Shown here: one piece after another, positions 1,427 through 55,759 of the stretch
How positions within the stretch are numbered: the first letter of the stretch is position 1
Layout: each line of letters begins with the position of its first letter
Assembly (NCBI GenBank): GCA_947591495.1
Contig: CANQDG010000004.1
Span: 5,358 to 69,357, forward strand
Length of the DNA stretch: 64,000 nucleotides
Origin: an uncultured Bacilli bacterium
GTDB taxonomy: Bacteria > Bacillota_I > Bacilli_A > ML615J-28 > CAG-313
Direction: 5' to 3'
Program-made: the position numbers and the translations under genes
Notes under the pieces: generated by a model
Seen by the model: only the letters and a program-made list of their open reading frames with translations
What the model was told of the DNA's origin: nothing
Databases searched by the model: none

Positions 1427-3318
1427 ATATATCTAAAACATTATTTAAAAATCTCACTAGGTGTCCAAGTTTTATGGGACTTTATGATTTATATCTTAAC
1501 CGCACCTTTAATGAGGTTAAAACAATTGATGGCAAAAAGATTAATCAAGAATTGTTAGATGACATTCTAAACTTAGATGATAATTTATTTAATGAAGAAC
1601 AAGAAAAATTGCAAGAATTACTTTATCAAATGTTTGATGATAGTGATGGTCATGACTTATTAGAACAAACTAATCCTCAAATGGAAGCCTTTAAAGATGT
1701 TTATAAAGAAGTTGAAATGCTTGCTGCAGAGCATGTTGAGGCTTTACTTGGAAAAAGTGTTCAGTTTTCAGATGATACCCATCAACAAAAGAAATTTTCT
1801 TATCGCTTAAATGGTAATGAATTTTATTGCTATTTAGATATCTATTATGAAGATGAAAAAAGCATTAAAGTTTTTGAAGTAAAAACAACAACTTCTTCTA
1901 AATTTGATGATCTTCATATTACGAAGAATAAGCAAACAAGGCCGCTTTTTATAAAAAAAGAAGACCACATCTTTCATCTAAATAAAACAATTGAGCCTAG
2001 TTTATTACAAAATAAATTAAATAAAATAGCAGATCGCTATGGTAAGGTTGGTAAATATATATATGATATTGCTATTCAAAGACATATTATTGAAAATAGT
2101 ATGGAAAATGCAGGCAAAAATGTAGACAAAAAGGTAGAATATTACTTAGTCGTACTTGATGCTAAATATCGCTTTAGTGGTAAATATGATGAAAACAATC
2201 AACCTCTTTATTTACCAGATCAAGATGGTAATGAACTATTCAATGTTTATGATGTAACAGAGTTAACGACACCTTATCAAGAACAAATTTTAAATGAACG
2301 CACTCTTCTTTTTGAGTGGCAGGAAAACTTGGCAATTAAAACGAATGTTTTAGGAAAACATTGTCAATATAAAGAAACTACTCAGTGTAAATTTTGCCCT
2401 GTATGTATGAAAAAGGTTTTAAAAGATGGTTCAATTTTGGAATATTTAGATAAACATCGGGCCTTTTTTGTGCAAAATGAAAAAGGACGTGATAAAAGGG
2501 TTGATGTTTATGATTTGATTAATCAAGGTCTTACCACGATTCCAGATGCCAAACCATATCTACGCAAGCCTAATAATCTTATGCAATGTGATACTTATGA
2601 AAATAATTATATATATATCAATAAGCCACAAATTGAGGCTTCTTTAGCAAATATTTCGTATCCAATTTATTATTTAGATTTTGAAAGTTACAATTCACCA
2701 CTTCCACGATTTTTCCAAGAGTCACCTTATATGCAATCTTTATTTCAATATTCTTTACATGTTGAGAAGGCTAAAAATCAGTGTGATTTAGTAAAAGATC
2801 ACAAAGAGTTCCTTGCGAAAGATCATTTAGACCATCGTGAAGAATTAATCAAACAATTAATTGAAGATATTGATTTAAGTCAAGGGGGAACGGTTATTGT
2901 TTATAATAAATCATTTGAACAAACGCGTTTAAAAGAACTTGCAAGAATATTTCCAAAATATCAAGAAGCTCTATATAATATTCATGATCATATTTATGAT
3001 TTATTAGATTCTTTAAAAGGTAAAGCCGATCAAGTAGAAGACAAAGATACACAACCAACCTTTAATTATTATCATCCATTACTTCATGGTTCCTTTTCTA
3101 TTAAGAAAGTTTTACCGCTTTTTAGTGATTTATCATATCAAAATTTAGAAGTTAAAAATGGTACTGAGGCGATTGTAACATATGGTATGTTACCTTATTT
3201 AACCGAACAAGAATATAAAGAAAAATATTTAGCATTAAGCGTTTATTGTAGGCAAGATACTTGGGCGATGGTTGAAATATTAAGAGGCCTTTACGAGTTA
3301 ATAAAAAACCCTAATTAG
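1423..3318 (+). CDS. DUF2779-type protein: Cas4/AddB-like Fe-S PD-(D/E)XK nuclease domain fused to a DEDD-type exonuclease-like domain
   Basis: Motifs: TRCPSF, DIYYEDEKSIKVFEVKTT, CQYKETTQCKFCPVC, then YYLDFES, VYNKSFEQTRL and CRQDTWAM. Confidence 0.8.
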   Translation: MNISKTLFKNLTRCPSFMGLYDLYLNRTFNEVKTIDGKKINQELLDDILNLDDNLFNEEQEKLQELLYQMFDDSDGHDLLEQTNPQMEAFKDVYKEVEMLAAEHVEALLGKSVQFSDDTHQQKKFSYRLNGNEFYCYLDIYYEDEKSIKVFEVKTTTSSKFDDLHITKNKQTRPLFIKKEDHIFHLNKTIEPSLLQNKLNKIADRYGKVGKYIYDIAIQRHIIENSMENAGKNVDKKVEYYLVVLDAKYRFSGKYDENNQPLYLPDQDGNELFNVYDVTELTTPYQEQILNERTLLFEWQENLAIKTNVLGKHCQYKETTQCKFCPVCMKKVLKDGSILEYLDKHRAFFVQNEKGRDKRVDVYDLINQGLTTIPDAKPYLRKPNNLMQCDTYENNYIYINKPQIEASLANISYPIYYLDFESYNSPLPRFFQESPYMQSLFQYSLHVEKAKNQCDLVKDHKEFLAKDHLDHREELIKQLIEDIDLSQGGTVIVYNKSFEQTRLKELARIFPKYQEALYNIHDHIYDLLDSLKGKADQVEDKDTQPTFNYYHPLLHGSFSIKKVLPLFSDLSYQNLEVKNGTEAIVTYGMLPYLTEQEYKEKYLALSVYCRQDTWAMVEILRGLYELIKNPN

Positions 3319-18433: not shown

Positions 18434-18468
18434 AATAAAAAAAGTGATAAGTGAACACTTATCACTTT
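18434..18468 (-). terminator. Terminator of the toxN transcript
   Basis: 13-bp stem aaagtgataagtg (18441-18453) / cacttatcacttt (18456-18468), followed on the minus strand by a T-run. Confidence 0.65.
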
Positions 18469-19028
18469 TAGGCTGCAATATGAGAATACTCTTCGCATTT
18501 TTCTTCAGCTTCTTTAAAAGGCATAATACTCTTTAGAAACTTCATATTGTTTCCGTTAATAATAGTGCTTTCGTTGATCTTGATGGTATATAAATATTTT
18601 GCTTTTTTATAAATTAAATCAGTATTTTTTTTAATCCACTTTAATTCATCAAAAATTAAAGACTTATATTTTACATCAGATTCTTCAGCAGTATTATAAT
18701 AGTTGATTTCTGATAAAGGTACAGGGATCATATTGTTTAATTTAATAGTACCTATTAACACTAATTTATTTTTAGATGTTTTAGTAATACGTAAAATTGA
18801 ATAAGTGGATTTTTTAATAGAACCATTAGAATTATAATCCGATGGTTTTGGTGAAGATAGTGGTGCGAAATAGTTGAAATTATTGACTTTTAAAATGACA
18901 CCAATGTATTTACGAGGATGTACTCTGGTTTTTTCTTTGTTAGATAACATCGTGTTCTTAAAAAAGTTCATCATATAATTAATGTATTGATCAGAAACTT
19001 CTATTATTATAATTTTTTGTAAATTCAT
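18468..19028 (-). CDS. toxN: Type III toxin-antitoxin endoribonuclease toxin, ToxN/AbiQ family
   Basis: Matches ToxN blocks as I remember them. KYIGVILKVNNFNYFAPLSSPK resembles AFIGIVLEIQGHKYLAPLTSPK. IGTIKLNNMIPV resembles LGLINLKFMIPI. YKSLIFDELKWIKKNTDLIYKKA resembles YKRMLYKQLQFIRANSDKI. RBS aaaaggggt upstream; repeat RNA cassettes upstream. Confidence 0.9.
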   Translation of the reverse strand: MNLQKIIIIEVSDQYINYMMNFFKNTMLSNKEKTRVHPRKYIGVILKVNNFNYFAPLSSPKPSDYNSNGSIKKSTYSILRITKTSKNKLVLIGTIKLNNMIPVPLSEINYYNTAEESDVKYKSLIFDELKWIKKNTDLIYKKAKYLYTIKINESTIINGNNMKFLKSIMPFKEAEEKCEEYSHIAA

Positions 19029-19051
19029 ACGATACCCCTTTTTTAAATTAT

Positions 19052-19202
19052 AATAATAAAATGGTAAGATATCAATATCTCACCATTATTGTTTAAAATC
19101 AGCATAGCTTATTTATATCTACTATTCAATGGTCGGTGTGGAATCACCTGTTCATTAAAGCTTCCGCGCTTATTGCGAAAGCAAATAATAAATCAACTAT
19201 GC
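19052..19202 (-). ncRNA. Antitoxin-like RNA cassette A (toxin-proximal, repeat block decayed)
   Basis: On the minus strand: promoter 19209-19237, closing-helix arms (19101-19122 and 19181-19205), about one repeat-equivalent (ggtgtggaatcacc-tgttcattaaa-gcttccgcgcttat), a hairpin at 19061-19086 and a T-run, then the toxN RBS. Confidence 0.55.
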
Positions 19203-19208
19203 ACTAGC

Positions 19209-19237
19209 ATTATATCAAAAAAGAAATTAAGTGTCAA
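19209..19237 (-). promoter_or_regulatory. Sigma-70-type promoter of cassette A
   Basis: Minus strand TTGACA (19237-19232), 17-nt spacer, TATAAT (19214-19209). Confidence 0.7.
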
Positions 19238-19302
19238 TATCTTTTTAAAAAAATCTATAATTTTTTTGGGTAATATATATCATTGTAATAAAAAATTTTT
19301 AT

Positions 19303-19498
19303 AATAAAAATGGTAAGATTAATATCTTACCATTACTATTTAATATAAGGCATAGTTACTTATTCTTACAACTCCCGCACTTATGGTGGAGGATCACCGT
19401 TCATTACAACTCCCGCACTTATGGTGGAGGATCACCTGTTTACTTACAACTCCCGCACTTATGGTGGAGGATCACCGGATGAATAAGAATAACTACGC
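19303..19498 (-). ncRNA. Antitoxin-like RNA cassette B (three repeats inside a closing helix)
   Basis: Own promoter 19505-19533. Helix arms ggcatagttacttattcttaca (19349-19370) / ggatgaataagaataactacgc (19477-19498). Three cores. Terminator hairpin atggtaagat-taat-atcttaccat (19310-19333) followed by TTTTTATT on the minus strand. Confidence 0.7.
19371..19476 (-). repeat. 3 x tandem repeat, identical 28-nt core actcccgcacttatggtggaggatcacc
   Basis: Cores start at 19371, 19409 and 19449 (periods 38 and 40 nt). Linkers are gttcattaca and tgtttacttaca. Confidence 0.9.
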
Positions 19499-19504
19499 AT
19501 TAAC

Positions 19505-19533
19505 ATTATATCAAAAAAGAAATTAAGTGTCAA
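19505..19533 (-). promoter_or_regulatory. Sigma-70-type promoter of cassette B
   Basis: Minus strand TTGACA (19533-19528), 17-nt spacer, TATAAT (19510-19505). Confidence 0.7.
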
Positions 19534-19596
19534 TATCTTTTTAAAAAAATCTATAATTTTCTTGGGAAATATATATCCTTGTAATCAAAATTTTTA

Positions 19597-19789
19597 TAAT
19601 AAAAATGGTAAGATATTAATCTTACCATAATAGTTTAAATGTAGCATAGCATCTTATTCTTACAGCTTCCGCGCTAAGGTGGGGAATCACCGTTCTATAG
19701 AGCTCCCGCGCTTATGGTGGGGGATCACCTGTTCATTACAGCTTCCGCGCTAAGGTGGGGAATCACCGGGTGAATAAGAATAACTATGT
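19597..19789 (-). ncRNA. Antitoxin-like RNA cassette C (three repeats, variant cores)
   Basis: Own promoter 19796-19824. Helix arms at 19644-19664 / 19768-19792. Terminator hairpin atggtaagat-atta-atcttaccat (19605-19628) followed by a T-run on the minus strand. Confidence 0.7.
19665..19767 (-). repeat. 3 x tandem repeat, cores gcttccgcgctaaggtggggaatcacc / gctcccgcgcttatggtgggggatcacc / gcttccgcgctaaggtggggaatcacc
   Basis: Cores start at 19665, 19702 and 19741. The first and third are identical; the middle one is closer to the cassette B core. Confidence 0.9.
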
Positions 19790-19795
19790 ACTAAC

Positions 19796-19824
19796 ATTAT
19801 ACCAAAAAAGAAAATCAGTGTCAA
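19796..19824 (-). promoter_or_regulatory. Sigma-70-type promoter of cassette C
   Basis: Minus strand TTGACA (19824-19819), 17-nt spacer, TATAAT (19801-19796). Confidence 0.7.
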
Positions 19825-19865
19825 TGCTTTTTTAAAACTTATTAATATTTTTTATATGTTAGGAC

Positions 19866-21185
19866 TTAATATTCTGTTAAAAGAAATCCAAGGTAAAGTG
19901 GAATCGTAAGTATTTTATCTACTTTTCCAATATTATAATGTCCAAGTTTAATTACGCCTGCAACATGATATTTTTCAGGATGTGCAAGAATAGTTTTTGC
20001 ACTTTTAGTATTGCCAGTTGTGGATTTAATTTCTATAAGATAGCATCCACCCTTGTATCTTGTGACAAAATCAATTTCAAGTCCTGAATCTTTGTGATAA
20101 TAATATAACTTTCTACCCATCTTCACAAAGATATCCGCAATTAGATTTTCAAAGATTGCGCCTTTATAAGCATAAAGATTGCCTTGTAAAATATCGTACT
20201 GCGTTCCATTTTCTAGCATACTTACAAATAGCCCTGTATCATTCATATAAACTTTAAAAACATCTTGTATGGCATTGCCATCGAGAGGAAGTTCAGGAAG
20301 TTCAAGATTATAACAACGCGAAACGATTCCTGCATCTTCAATCCATTGTAAGCTCCCCGCAAATTTTCTTGCGGGAGTACCTTTTTTTACCACCGAATAT
20401 TGAAACTTTTTATTTTCTTTACTAAGTTGCATAGGGATTGATTGAAAACATTCTCTAATAAGGGGTTTATCCATCTTTCTAGCATATTTTACCATATCAT
20501 CTTCATAAGAGTTGATAATATTACGTTGCATAGTTAGGACTATATTCATTTGTTTAGTGTCAATAAATTTTTGAACAACAGCTGGCATCCCTCCAACAAC
20601 TGTATATTGAAGCATAAGTTCATACATCTTGTTGTGCAAAGCATCAGGAACAGGTGTTACTGTTTGTAAACACATCTTTAATTTTTCAATAATCTTTTCG
20701 CTTATGCCATTAGCCCAAAGGAACTCTTCAAAATCAAGTGGTCGCATTTCAATAAGCGCCTCAGAGCCTACTGGAACAGATTTTGGTTGTTTACCATAAC
20801 CCCTAACGCCAAGAAGTGAGCCTGTGCTAATGACATCAAATCTACCATCTTCCTTAAAAAATTTCAATGATGTTCGTGCCTCAGGACAATCTTGTATCTC
20901 ATCAAAAATAATAATTGTTTCGTATGGTACAAAAATTGCCTCATCACCAAGAAGTGCCGACATCATAATGATGAGATCATCCACTTTTAATGAATCATTA
21001 AAAATAGTAATATAGTTGGGATTAGTTAAAAAATTCAAATAAACAACATGCTTATAATTTTCTTTCGCAAACTTGAGAACCGAAAAGGTTTTGCCACATT
21101 GCCTTTGCCCTTTAATGATAAGGGGACTTTTATTAGGAGTATTCTTCCAATCTTTCAGTACATTTTCAATCTTTCTTTTTAACAT
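19866..21185 (-). CDS. AAA+ ATPase with C-terminal DUF4143-type domain (COG1373-like), paralog 1
   Basis: Walker A GQRQCGKT and Walker B IIIFDEIQ. Clear paralog of 54295..55614: same 439-aa length and shared blocks (ARTSLKF, DGRFDVISTGSLLG, VVGGMP, KKFQYS, YYHKDSGLEIDF). Confidence 0.85.
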   Translation of the reverse strand: MLKRKIENVLKDWKNTPNKSPLIIKGQRQCGKTFSVLKFAKENYKHVVYLNFLTNPNYITIFNDSLKVDDLIIMMSALLGDEAIFVPYETIIIFDEIQDCPEARTSLKFFKEDGRFDVISTGSLLGVRGYGKQPKSVPVGSEALIEMRPLDFEEFLWANGISEKIIEKLKMCLQTVTPVPDALHNKMYELMLQYTVVGGMPAVVQKFIDTKQMNIVLTMQRNIINSYEDDMVKYARKMDKPLIRECFQSIPMQLSKENKKFQYSVVKKGTPARKFAGSLQWIEDAGIVSRCYNLELPELPLDGNAIQDVFKVYMNDTGLFVSMLENGTQYDILQGNLYAYKGAIFENLIADIFVKMGRKLYYYHKDSGLEIDFVTRYKGGCYLIEIKSTTGNTKSAKTILAHPEKYHVAGVIKLGHYNIGKVDKILTIPLYLGFLLTEY

Positions 21186-21212: not shown

Positions 21213-21241
21213 ATTATATCACAAATTTAAAACTTTTTCAA
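21213..21241 (-). promoter_or_regulatory. Promoter of ATPase paralog 1
   Basis: Minus strand TTGAAA (21241-21236), 17-nt spacer, TATAAT (21218-21213). The -35 lies inside the first 33-bp repeat unit. Confidence 0.6.
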
Positions 21242-21329
21242 GGGAGTTTTAGTTAAAAATTACAACTTTTTCAAGGGACTTTTTGCTAGGTGTTGCAACT
21301 TTTTCAAGGGAGTTTTATATTTTTAGTAA
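21231..21329. repeat. 3 x 33-bp tandem repeat with conserved core aactttttcaaggga(g/c)t
   Basis: Units start at 21231, 21264 and 21297, exactly 33 bp apart. Confidence 0.85.
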
Positions 21330-21337
21330 TTTTTTTA

Positions 21338-21484
21338 TTAAATATAAGGCATAGCTTATATACATTTATTATCAATATTTGGTAAAAAATCACTTGTTCA
21401 TTACAATTTTTATGCGTATTTTAAAAGCCAATAATAAGTCAACTATGCACTAAATATTAAAATTGGTTTAATATTAAATGTCAA
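21338..21484 (-). other. Decayed fourth copy of the antitoxin-like cassette (D)
   Basis: ttaaatataaggcatagcttata (21338-21360), aatcacttgttcattaca (21388-21405), ccaataataagtcaactatgcacta (21428-21452) and tgtcaa (21479-21484) are collinear with the helix arm, linker, helix arm and -35 of cassettes A to C. Cores and the terminator hairpin are lost. Confidence 0.6.
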
Positions 21485-52219: not shown

Positions 52220-52585
52220 GGGTCTGTATATTGGTTTCGATTGAATTTCGGAAGTTATGTAAGCATGTCGTGGTTGTGCACGTTAAAACACCGAGATAAA
52301 ATAAACGGAAATACAAATTACGCTTTCTGCTAAGCTTAAAATAGCAGGCTAGTTTTATACTAGTTTTATCTCTTATATTGCTTGCCTACGTGTGGTATAA
52401 GGGTAAGTAGAGTAGGCTTGGAAGAAATACTGCTGTTTCTAGGTATAATTCGAAATTTTAGAACTGGCAATTATTATCTTTGCTAATTGTGATAGTAGTT
52501 GTAAGATATATACAAAAAGCTAAACATGTAGAAGACATAGCGAATGATGTTTAAGACCCGAGTTCGAATCTCGGCAGATCCACCA
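52220..52585 (+). ncRNA. ssrA: tmRNA (SsrA)
   Basis: Acceptor stem GGGTCTG / CAGATCC with the G3-U pair. T-arm CCGAG-TTCGAAT-CTCGG. Encoded CCA at 52583-52585. Tag-like frame GGA AAT ACA AAT TAC GCT TTC TGC TAA at 52307-52333. Confidence 0.92.
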
Positions 52586-54294: not shown

Positions 54295-55614
54295 TTAAAT
54301 AAACATAGCAAGAAAATGAGGAATACTAAATTTCTTATCTTTCATCCCTATGTTGCCACTAATTAACTTCATAGCAATAGATGGTGAAAATTCTTTTATA
54401 AAAAAGTCAAGAGATTTGGTTGCTGAATTACCTGCCTTAACTTCAATTGGAATAACTTCGGCATTTTTTTCAATAATAAATTCAAGTTCAGAATTATCAT
54501 TTGGTTTATAATAATGAAGGGTATAACCATTTTTGACAAGCGTTTCAGCGATGAAGTTTTCATATATACCACCTTTAGCAAATCCCTTTAATGTTCCATT
54601 AAGTAACGCTTGCTTTGTGGCAAAGCCAAATAATGCAAGTAAAAGTCCTGTATCTGCTATATAAAGTTTGAATTCATTGCTTTTTTCATAAGCATTAAGT
54701 GGCAAAATAGGTGTCGTAGTATTATAGCAGATATAAGCCATATTGGCATCGTGTAACCACTGCACACTATCCATAAATTTACGAGCCGTAGCTTTTTTTT
54801 CAATTTCAGAATATTTGAATTTTTTATTTTCTTTAGCTAGTTGACGTGGAATACTTTCATAACACTTACGAACCTTTAATTTTTCGGCACCTTTAGCGTG
54901 TTGAGAAATATCGTCTATGTAAGATATTAAGATTTTATCTTGAATTTCTTGCACTTTAGTGAAATCTTTGAATTCCATAAAATTGGCAACTACTTCCGGC
55001 ATTCCACCTACTACAAGATATTCACGAAGTAGCATTTCAAATTTTTCATTGATTTCAGGTGGTATCTTTTCTTTTGATGTATAAAAACTTTTAAGATAAG
55101 CAATCGTTTCATCACTATAGCCATATGCCCATAAAAATTCTTCAAAATCCATAGAATACATCATAGCAGTCTTTTCGTAACCAACTGGAATTGATTCAAC
55201 CGGTTTAACTTCCTTATCATCGTCATCACCATAAGATAAACCAAGAAGTGAACCCGAAGCAATCACATCATAACGGCCATCTTCGGCGAGAAACTTTAAT
55301 GATGTGCGAGCATCAGCACATTTTTGAATTTCATCAAGGAATATAAGAGTTTTGCCAGGGATTAGTTTTACCCCAGGAATATTGGCAGTCAATCTTTTAT
55401 ATATTTCTTCAGCAGTCTTGTTACCACTAAAGATAATCTTTAGACTTTTTTGTTCATGGAAGTTAATTTCCACAAAACTTTCATATTCCCTTTTACCAAA
55501 TTCTCGGATTAAATATGTCTTACCTACTTGTCTTGCACCCTTTACTAAAAGACATTCTTTTTTATCTTTATTTTTCCATGCAAGCAAAGTATCATACATT
55601 TTTCTTTTTAACAT
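54295..55614 (-). CDS. AAA+ ATPase with DUF4143-type C-terminus, paralog 3
   Basis: Walker A GARQVGKT and Walker B IFLDEIQ. 439 aa; close paralog of 19866..21185. Confidence 0.85.
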   Translation of the reverse strand: MLKRKMYDTLLAWKNKDKKECLLVKGARQVGKTYLIREFGKREYESFVEINFHEQKSLKIIFSGNKTAEEIYKRLTANIPGVKLIPGKTLIFLDEIQKCADARTSLKFLAEDGRYDVIASGSLLGLSYGDDDDKEVKPVESIPVGYEKTAMMYSMDFEEFLWAYGYSDETIAYLKSFYTSKEKIPPEINEKFEMLLREYLVVGGMPEVVANFMEFKDFTKVQEIQDKILISYIDDISQHAKGAEKLKVRKCYESIPRQLAKENKKFKYSEIEKKATARKFMDSVQWLHDANMAYICYNTTTPILPLNAYEKSNEFKLYIADTGLLLALFGFATKQALLNGTLKGFAKGGIYENFIAETLVKNGYTLHYYKPNDNSELEFIIEKNAEVIPIEVKAGNSATKSLDFFIKEFSPSIAMKLISGNIGMKDKKFSIPHFLAMFI

Positions 55615-55638: not shown

Positions 55639-55667
55639 ATTATAGCATAGTATTACCGCCTTTTCAA
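55639..55667 (-). promoter_or_regulatory. Promoter of ATPase paralog 3
   Basis: Minus strand TTGAAA (55667-55662), 17-nt spacer, TATAAT (55644-55639). Confidence 0.6.
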
Positions 55668-55759
55668 AAAATATGCATATTTTGGCATATTGAAAAATTG
55701 AAATTATGCATATTTTAGGATATTAAAAAATGAAAAATATGCATATTTTTGGTTTATAT
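55661..55759. repeat. 3 x 33-bp tandem repeat centred on the palindrome (a/t)tatgcatat
   Basis: ATGCAT centres at 55673, 55706 and 55739, exactly 33 bp apart. Units are ttttcaaaaaatatgcatattttggcatattga / aaaattgaaattatgcatattttaggatattaa / aaaatgaaaaatatgcatatttttggtttatat. Confidence 0.85.

Follow-up and report, generated by a model that had tools for sequence, protein, structure and literature searches.

A closing helix joins the ends of three-unit antitoxin RNA arrays in a ToxIN-family type III toxin-antitoxin locus of an uncultured Bacilli bacterium

Introduction

Why should the two ends of a type III antitoxin RNA precursor be tied together by a long helix? The question is raised by a locus in a 64,000-nucleotide stretch of contig CANQDG010000004.1 (GenBank assembly GCA_947591495.1, from an uncultured Bacilli bacterium), hereafter called the window, in which toxN, the gene for an endoribonuclease toxin of the ToxN/AbiQ family, is accompanied on the same (minus) strand by a series of antitoxin cassettes, lettered A, B and C with increasing distance from the gene. 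Each of the intact cassettes is an array of three short repeat units bracketed by two arms that can pair with each other. The closing helix formed by these arms is confirmed here on thermodynamic and comparative grounds, and it is limited to one small clade rather than being family-wide. The reading that we prefer, with a probability of roughly 0.55, is that the helix is a clade-specific variant of the 5′ leader hairpin of the family, one that ties the precursor ends together, and that the antitoxin unit which carries it was amplified in tandem.

Type III toxin-antitoxin systems of the ToxIN family are bicistronic operons with one promoter (PMC5086642), and both the assembly of their cyclic complexes and the dependence of the activation threshold on the supply and turnover of antitoxin are regarded as open questions (PMC8860590). 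According to an original prediction, made from the sequence of the window, a terminal clamp helix is not known as a feature of described type III antitoxins, and the literature agrees with it: neither a closing helix nor multiple promoter-terminator antitoxin units nor a 5′ leader hairpin is described in PMC5086642, PMC8860590, PMC3401426 or PMC12283969, or turned up in a broader full-text search. Nothing relevant was found in the literature on type III systems when it was searched for clamps, extra arrays or RNase III.

Results

The closing helix of the cassettes

In cassette B the repeats are bracketed on the minus strand by a 5′ arm (19480..19502), whose first nucleotide is about 0-3 nt away from where the transcript is predicted to begin, and a 3′ arm (19346..19368); the corresponding arms of cassette C, also on the minus strand, lie at 19772-19791 (5′) and 19641-19659 (3′), all four having been delimited by folding and a duplex test. 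The arms around the cassette B block had been predicted to pair over about 16 bp, and they do: 19350-19368 and 19480-19498 are reverse-complementary over 9+7 bp with a 2-nt bulge. Across the cassettes the helix measures 16-19 bp and is interrupted by bulges or internal loops of 2-4 nt. A direct sequence check also upheld the prediction that one mismatch in the cassette B helix turns into a U-G wobble solely on the minus strand (19352 is A and 19496 is C). In RNAfold minimum-energy structures of the minus-strand transcripts of A, B and C the closing helix is present in each, which bears out the expected fold of B and C.

The pairing of the arms was compared with 500 shuffles per cassette, whose means were about -7 to -9 kcal/mol. 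The arm duplex of cassette B reached -18.1 kcal/mol, a value that none of the 500 shuffles equalled, and those of cassettes C and A reached -17.3 and -17.8 kcal/mol (2/500 shuffles as good in either case). A fourth and heavily decayed cassette, D, gave -12.7 kcal/mol (18/500), and the cassette of a related species, at the locus numbered L152 among the homologous loci described below, gave -16.6 kcal/mol (4/500). The closing helix is kept together with the three repeats in two related species, represented by L152 and by L151, where the 5′ arm is cut by the contig end; at both loci a single x-y-x cassette of three units, its arms the same as those in the window, immediately precedes toxN, and the ToxN of L152 is 69% identical to that of the window. 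The inner part of the 3′ arm is derived from a linker between repeats (GUUGUAAGAAU versus GUUGUAAUGAAC).

Repeat units and pseudoknot fold

Cassette B contains three identical 28-nt ToxI-like pseudoknot cores on the minus strand (19371-19398, 19409-19436 and 19449-19476; string check, Tandem Repeats Finder [TRF] and covariation). The core reads ACTCCCGCACTTATGGTGGAGGATCACC on the plus strand and GGUGAUCCUCCACCAUAAGUGCGGGAGU on the minus strand, and exact string matches at 19371, 19409 and 19449, separated by linkers of 10 and 12 nt, reproduce the predicted arrangement to the nucleotide; in shuffles of the window 0 occurrences of the core pattern are expected. Cassette C as a whole spans 19641..19791 on the minus strand, with cores at 19664-19691 (x), 19701-19729 (y) and 19740-19767 (x) placed by string check and folding. 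Its two x cores (at 19664 and 19740) are identical and the y core (at 19701) is a variant, as the predicted x-y-x pattern requires. TRF assigned both arrays a period of 38 and about 3 copies, which places two tandem 38-nt x 3 arrays upstream of toxN on the same strand (19371-19476 and 19664-19767), the toxN-adjacent array, that of cassette A, being degenerate.

An alignment of 46 distinct homologous units was used to examine the fold by covariation. Stem 1 (GGUG/CACC) is 98.9% paired over these units, and stem 2, in which loop nucleotides 2-6 face the 5 nt preceding G-Y-U, is 86.5% paired. Taken together, the stems are paired in 92% of cells (76.7% after shuffling), two-sided changes are seen in 55 cells where shuffles give 11.9, double changes occur at 6 of the 9 pseudoknot pairs, and slid stem registers are paired in only 43-63%. 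The same covariation is seen inside stem 2 in the window, with UUCC/GGAA in x, UCCC/GGGA in y and UCCU/GGGA in cassette B, the UCCU being loop nucleotides 2-5. The covariation across homologues thus supports the assignment of the repeats as ToxI-like pseudoknots, a family fold that their sequences would adopt. The original prediction was right about the capacity for a pseudoknot and wrong about its second stem: the CUCC/GGAG pairing that it proposed is 2-3 nt out of register and 45.7% paired across homologues, versus 86.5% for the family register, and was dropped in favour of the covarying loop register.

No Rfam family reached its gathering score anywhere in the region, and the only matches in 18900-19950 were at chance level (E >=0.75, up to E 10). 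A search of viral contigs with the cassette B core gave 0 matches and hence no sign of phage pseudo-ToxI copies.

Units 1 and 3 of the x-y-x cassettes are the same within a species, while the same nucleotide differs between species (CCUUAGCG in the window, CCAUAGCG in L151 and L152), and the middle y unit keeps distinct in all three. These sequences are consistent with outer x units that evolve in concert and with an array that may amount to 1.5 copies of a 76-nt x-y dimer.

The toxin and the layout of the locus

The locus, on the minus strand, belongs to the ToxIN family of type III toxin-antitoxin systems, an assignment that follows from the published criteria of a ToxN homologue, a terminator ahead of its gene and tandem repeats ahead of the terminator (PMC5086642). 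The toxN gene (18468..19028, minus strand) encodes a protein of 186 amino acids that matches Pfam PF13958 (E=3e-30, 105.9 bits against a cut-off of 25) and the PADLOC AbiQ model (5.8e-33). The nearest solved structures are 4ATO (ToxN of B. thuringiensis, E=1.9e-16), 7D8O (E. coli), 2XD0 (P. atrosepticum) and 4GLK (AbiQ), and the protein has the residues that are invariant in 28 homologues, including the PLSSPK active-site motif. NCBIfam holds no model for ToxN or for the neighbouring ATPase, and tblastn found no second toxN in the window. Among 5.8 billion proteins the only closer relatives were P0002 (73% identical) and P0003 (69%), encoded on the contigs of L151 and L152. By analogy with its homologues the toxin presumably cleaves the window precursor into units, and homology to ToxN proteins with solved 3:3 complexes suggests that the window system may assemble in the same ring stoichiometry.

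On the minus strand the order of elements is P3, cassette C, T3, P2, cassette B, T2, P1, cassette A, T1, toxN and T0, in which P stands for a predicted promoter and T for a predicted intrinsic terminator. Each cassette has its own promoter (P3, 19796..19824; P2, 19505..19533; P1, 19209..19237), and all three match the consensus TTGACA-17-TATAAT at 12 of 12 positions with an extended -10 TG. The four terminators found by the consensus scan fall in the correct order: T3 (19605..19628) at the end of the cassette C transcript, T2 (19309..19334) at the end of the cassette B transcript, T1 (19060..19087) between cassette A and toxN, and T0 (18440..18469), a 13-bp stem with a T-run, downstream of toxN; terminator-like sites numbered 7 against 0.5 expected. 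The transcription from the minus strand that had been predicted is supported by these promoters and terminators, all of which lie on that strand. A repeat-family analysis (families D2 and D4) showed that the repeated DNA unit is about 295 bp long and includes the promoter and the terminator, and the stretch P1-A-T1-toxN has the canonical type III form, as do the L151 and L152 loci according to the same kind of predictions.

A 47-residue open reading frame (ORF) on the plus strand (19383-19526, with a repeated 'MVEDHR') was rejected as a read-through artefact of the repeats, cassette C having no equivalent, and the promoter scan gave no strong plus-strand match near it. A further promoter-like site (TTGATA-17-TATAAT, 11/12, minus strand 19075-19047) lies within T1 and precedes the toxN start codon by 19 nt; a loop that only T1 has supplies its -35 element, which is not present in L152 or in the variant locus L082 described below. 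Judged from its sequence, this site could allow antitoxin-independent transcription of toxN.

Decayed cassettes and variation among contigs

Cassette A (19102..19202, minus strand; alignment, fold and arm duplex), the one nearest toxN, is one repeat-length shorter than the others with which it was aligned and has degenerate cores, and it retains the closing helix. It is the positional orthologue of the cassette of L151 and L152. Its arms have changed on both sides and pair with each other at -17.8 kcal/mol versus -11.3 to -16.8 kcal/mol with the arms of B, C and L152. Cassette D (21349..21448, minus strand), recognised by homology to A and likewise of the A type, lies upstream of an ATPase gene (19866-21185) and keeps a remnant promoter and recognisable closing-helix arms, with no terminator. 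Among A, D and the intact cassettes, conservation is best in the block made up of the linker and the start of stem 1, UAAUGAACA-R-GUGAUU. The helix has therefore outlived the repeats twice, in A and in D, which argues for selection on the pairing itself.

The C-B-A array of three cassettes is reproduced in two contigs from other samples that encode an identical ToxN (L081 and L083), the second with an 18-nt deletion in the C-B spacer (L083:200-300). In L082, from the same species (positions 1126-1716), cassette A is missing and B stands directly upstream of toxN. An A-to-T change in the 3′ arm of B was seen in L088. Either cassette number and sequence are polymorphic or repeats have been collapsed in some assemblies.

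Homologous loci

The comparison drew on 150 loci with ToxN homologues (80 from genomes, 60 from metagenomes and the remainder from targeted look-ups), all collected by toxin-based searches. A tandem array lies directly upstream of toxN in 109 of the 150, with a period of 33-46 nt that is mostly 37-39 nt. When the duplex between the flanks of an array was scored against shuffles, the window clade gave z values of -2.6 to -3.9, whereas most of about 100 other arrays had z > -1, pairing no better than shuffles. The conservation of the closing helix in homologous loci on which the original prediction depended is consequently partial: L151 and L152 keep it and most of the other arrays do not. Five loci with intermediate duplexes (L013, L129, L130, L132 and L133, z -2.0 to -2.6) were discarded as independent closing helices, there being no enclosing helix on folding. 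Locus L068 (z -3.2), alone in scoring like the window clade, was discarded likewise, its 5′ flank pairing in another arrangement with the 5′ half of the terminator. This locus (L068:2780-3000, from a Haloplasma contractile metagenome-assembled genome) has a 2.9-unit array, and the duplex of its 5′ flank with the terminator half reaches -17.1 kcal/mol; such an arrangement could be antiterminator-like.

What most homologues have between the -10 box and the first repeat is a local 5′ hairpin of 5-7 bp, often with a GNRA-like tetraloop, as in GAUGG-GAAA-CCAUC, AUAGG-UAAG-CCUAU and AUAGG-GAAA-CCUAU. The loops are often GAAA, GCAA or UAAG (L002, L009, L013, L017, L020-L032, L092 and others), and the hairpins lie 5-45 nt upstream of the first repeat. 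A fold of -5 kcal/mol or better is reached by 71% of the 77 non-redundant leaders examined (median -7.1). Folding of the leaders of the window clade revealed no local hairpin (-1.2 to -1.7 kcal/mol). The AUAGG-loop-CCUAU hairpin of the sister clade has AUAG/CUAU in common with the base of the closing helix (GCRUAG...CUAUGC). Because most leaders carry a local hairpin while the window clade pairs across the array, it is the base-paired 5′ end that emerges as the widespread feature of the family.

Repeat number was likewise compared. TRF copy number in 82 non-redundant arrays was about 2 in 28, about 3 in 48 and about 4 in 6, and characterised systems have 5.5, 2.9 and 2.8 repeats, with 3 to 5.6 in E. 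coli clusters (PMC5086642, PMC8860590). Exactly three whole units make up every intact clamped cassette, of which there are four (B, C, L151 and L152) with one shared ancestry. The claim of exactly three repeats is accordingly correct for B and C and is not specific to the clamp, about 3 being the family mode (48/82) and 2 and 4 also occurring; since three is the commonest count with or without the clamp, the link that the original prediction drew to the 3:3 stoichiometry, though sensible on geometric grounds, can still be offered only as an inference.

A distant ToxN homologue (33% identity) in L148 has 34-nt arrays both upstream of the gene and about 1.3 kb downstream of it (1278-1344 and 3122-3260), and on sequence these may be two adjacent type III loci.

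Genes near the locus

The ATPase gene between cassettes C and D (19866-21185) has a paralogue elsewhere in the window (54295-55614), and both encode, on the minus strand, 439-residue AAA_14/DUF4143 ATPases that match the PADLOC defence candidate PDC-S01 (E ~1e-150). Just upstream of its -10 box, each of these genes is preceded by three repeats with a spacing of 33 nt (21223-21317 and 55667-55749), with the motifs CTCCCTTGAAAAAGTT and AAAATATGCATA; these look like putative operator arrays. A tmRNA gene lies on the plus strand at 52220-52585 (Rfam RF00023, 131.6 bits).

Discussion

Under the reading that we prefer, cassettes B and C would be stand-alone antitoxin genes, each with a consensus promoter in front, three 38-nt units between a 5′ and a 3′ arm, and a terminator at the end, and in their transcripts the first nucleotides would pair with the far side of the array in place of a local partner. 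The 5′ end, buried in a duplex, would be protected from decay that needs a free 5′ end, the three pseudoknots would be held as one closed, self-contained folding domain, and the 3′ tail of the last unit would be sequestered; ToxN would then process and bind the units as usual. Tandem amplification of the ~295-bp unit upstream of toxN would have raised the supply of antitoxin, and the toxN-proximal copy A would have decayed after the amplification (duplication, then degeneration), with relic D lying one gene upstream. The role that we infer for the helix is a stabilising and insulating one, and in favour of the helix we count its G-U pairs, which exist on the minus strand only.

Several points weigh against this reading. 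What it says of stability, cleavage and transcripts is drawn from sequence, and the clamped cassettes are all of one origin in three closely related species, which makes the comparative support thin. Most of the helix sequence is conserved and not covarying, and the arms are AT-rich and internally repetitive (UUAUUC occurs twice), so that a chance complementarity would be easier to keep. A length of 16-19 bp goes far beyond what the protection of a 5′ end needs, homologues managing with 5-7 bp, and suggests a further role. Finally, no RAAC linker motif is present where the 5′ arm meets the first unit, which bears on the release of unit 1.

A rival explanation, the idea behind the original prediction, is that the helix templates the ring: it would make the three-unit precursor topologically circular, capture three ToxN molecules in cis and nucleate the 3:3 complex. 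In the ToxIN rings that have been solved, a single ToxN active site holds the 3′ end of one unit together with the 5′ end of the following one (PMC8860590), and because neighbouring ends meet in this way the outer ends of a three-unit precursor must meet as well. The exact three units of all four intact clamped cassettes would suit such a template, as would the unpaired nucleotides at the helix junction (about 8-9), which roughly match the internal linkers (9-12), and the x-y-x order, which is kept in three species with x1 and x3 changing in parallel; ring assembly is, moreover, called an open question in the literature (PMC8860590). However, the family reaches its mode of about 3 units without any helix (48/82), arrays of 2 and 4 exist and characterised systems have 2.8-5.6, most of about 100 homologous arrays have no clamp, A and D retain the helix but not the three units, and the four cassettes are not independent, all of which makes this explanation unlikely in our view. 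A combined form, in which the clamp is a closed ring that loads three ToxN in cis and the A-type cassettes are ToxN-cleavable leader sensors, asks for more and seems to us more doubtful still. It takes up the fact that A and D keep the helix and little else that is recognisable beyond one junction of the linker or cleavage type, UAAUGAACA-R-GUGAUU; its sensor half holds that these cassettes could feed free-toxin levels back on the expression of toxN and of the defence ATPase. If the combined form were true, the locus would offer a naturally occurring intermediate through which the assembly of cyclic type III complexes could be dissected.

Stems cut by RNase III flank the rRNAs in a well-established design of rRNA precursors, and the clamp resembles them in closing the domain of a structured RNA with a long helix between its 5′ and 3′ flanks. 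A helix of 16-19 bp with small bulges that brackets a functional RNA and far exceeds in length the 5-7-bp hairpins in the leaders of homologues might in the same way be cut by RNase III, so that the array would be freed, or its turnover set off, without ToxN. Yet the window helix is much shorter than the rRNA stems, is broken by 2-4-nt bulges or internal loops and falls below the length of typical substrates (~20 bp or more), and what it encloses is a repeat array of a toxin-processed family in which the known processing enzyme is ToxN itself (PMC5086642); we consider a processing stem improbable. That the arms have no function in RNA at all, being a leftover inverted duplication of linker-like AT-rich sequence that persists within a young, conserved unit, would agree with the linker-derived inner 3′ arm, with the near identity of the arms of B, C, L151 and L152, which leaves little true covariation, and with the arms of D, which pair only marginally better than shuffles (18/500). 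Against this, the arms of A have diverged from those of B and C and still pair (-17.8 kcal/mol), better than with foreign arms (-11 to -14 kcal/mol), the helix is still there in A and in D although their repeats have decayed, and the wobble pairs fit the transcribed strand alone; such a fossil appears quite improbable. We give hardly any credence to a DNA-level element, in which the cassette would be mobilised through arms that act as terminal inverted repeats or as a recombination site, even though imperfect inverted repeats do bracket a segment of about 110 bp and cassette copy number differs between contigs. An element of the attC type or like a miniature inverted-repeat transposable element is rejected on account of the duplicated ~295-bp unit, which includes promoter and terminator and extends past the arms, and of mismatches that become wobbles in minus-strand RNA only. 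The L082 variant, furthermore, is explained by recombination between terminators, reading of the arm sequences revealed no attC-type R′/R″ core motifs, and a look at the neighbouring ORFs, short of a systematic search of the surroundings, showed no integrase or transposase.

Compared with the characterised systems that have toxins of the same ToxN/AbiQ family, ToxIN of P. atrosepticum, B. thuringiensis and E. coli and AbiQ/antiQ of Lactococcus, the window likewise places a repeat array of the 34-38-nt type ahead of the toxin gene, on its strand, with an intrinsic terminator immediately before that gene, except that the array directly ahead of the toxN terminator is here the decayed cassette A. 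The repeat is a pseudoknot of the hairpin type whose core GGUGAU...ACC...AAGUGC resembles ToxI of P. atrosepticum, and the number of units, about 3, is like that of B. thuringiensis ToxI (2.9) and antiQ (2.8). Unlike ToxIN with its one promoter, the window has three promoter-array-terminator units in series, the unit beside the toxin has decayed, which leaves the intact antitoxins as transcription units of their own, a 16-19-bp helix joins the 5′ leader to the 3′ flank of each array, units come in whole numbers with no partial repeat, and an x-y-x order of non-identical units is conserved. The toxIN loci of Erysipelotrichaceae, Lachnospiraceae and other Firmicutes (L001-L150), whose toxins belong to the same subfamily (40-61% identity), resemble the window in their 37-39-nt repeat, in the position of the terminator and in three being the commonest repeat number, but have a single array, a local 5′ leader hairpin, mostly no closing helix and a normal linker motif ahead of the first repeat. 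Extra ToxI-like arrays outside the toxin operon, able to supply antitoxin in trans, also occur as the 'pseudo-ToxI' or extra copies of phage TE escape mutants; those of the window, in contrast, are chromosomal and adjoin toxN.

Type III toxin-antitoxin systems serve as model RNA-protein assemblies and as anti-phage abortive-infection modules. In the variant described here the dosage of antitoxin would be raised by independent promoter-terminator units, the decay of the toxin-proximal antitoxin would uncouple the transcription of toxin and antitoxin, and the ends of the precursor would be tied together. If the clamp affects stability or assembly, simple constructs that set the clamp against a local hairpin, or that carry 2, 3 or 4 units, would make its effect testable.

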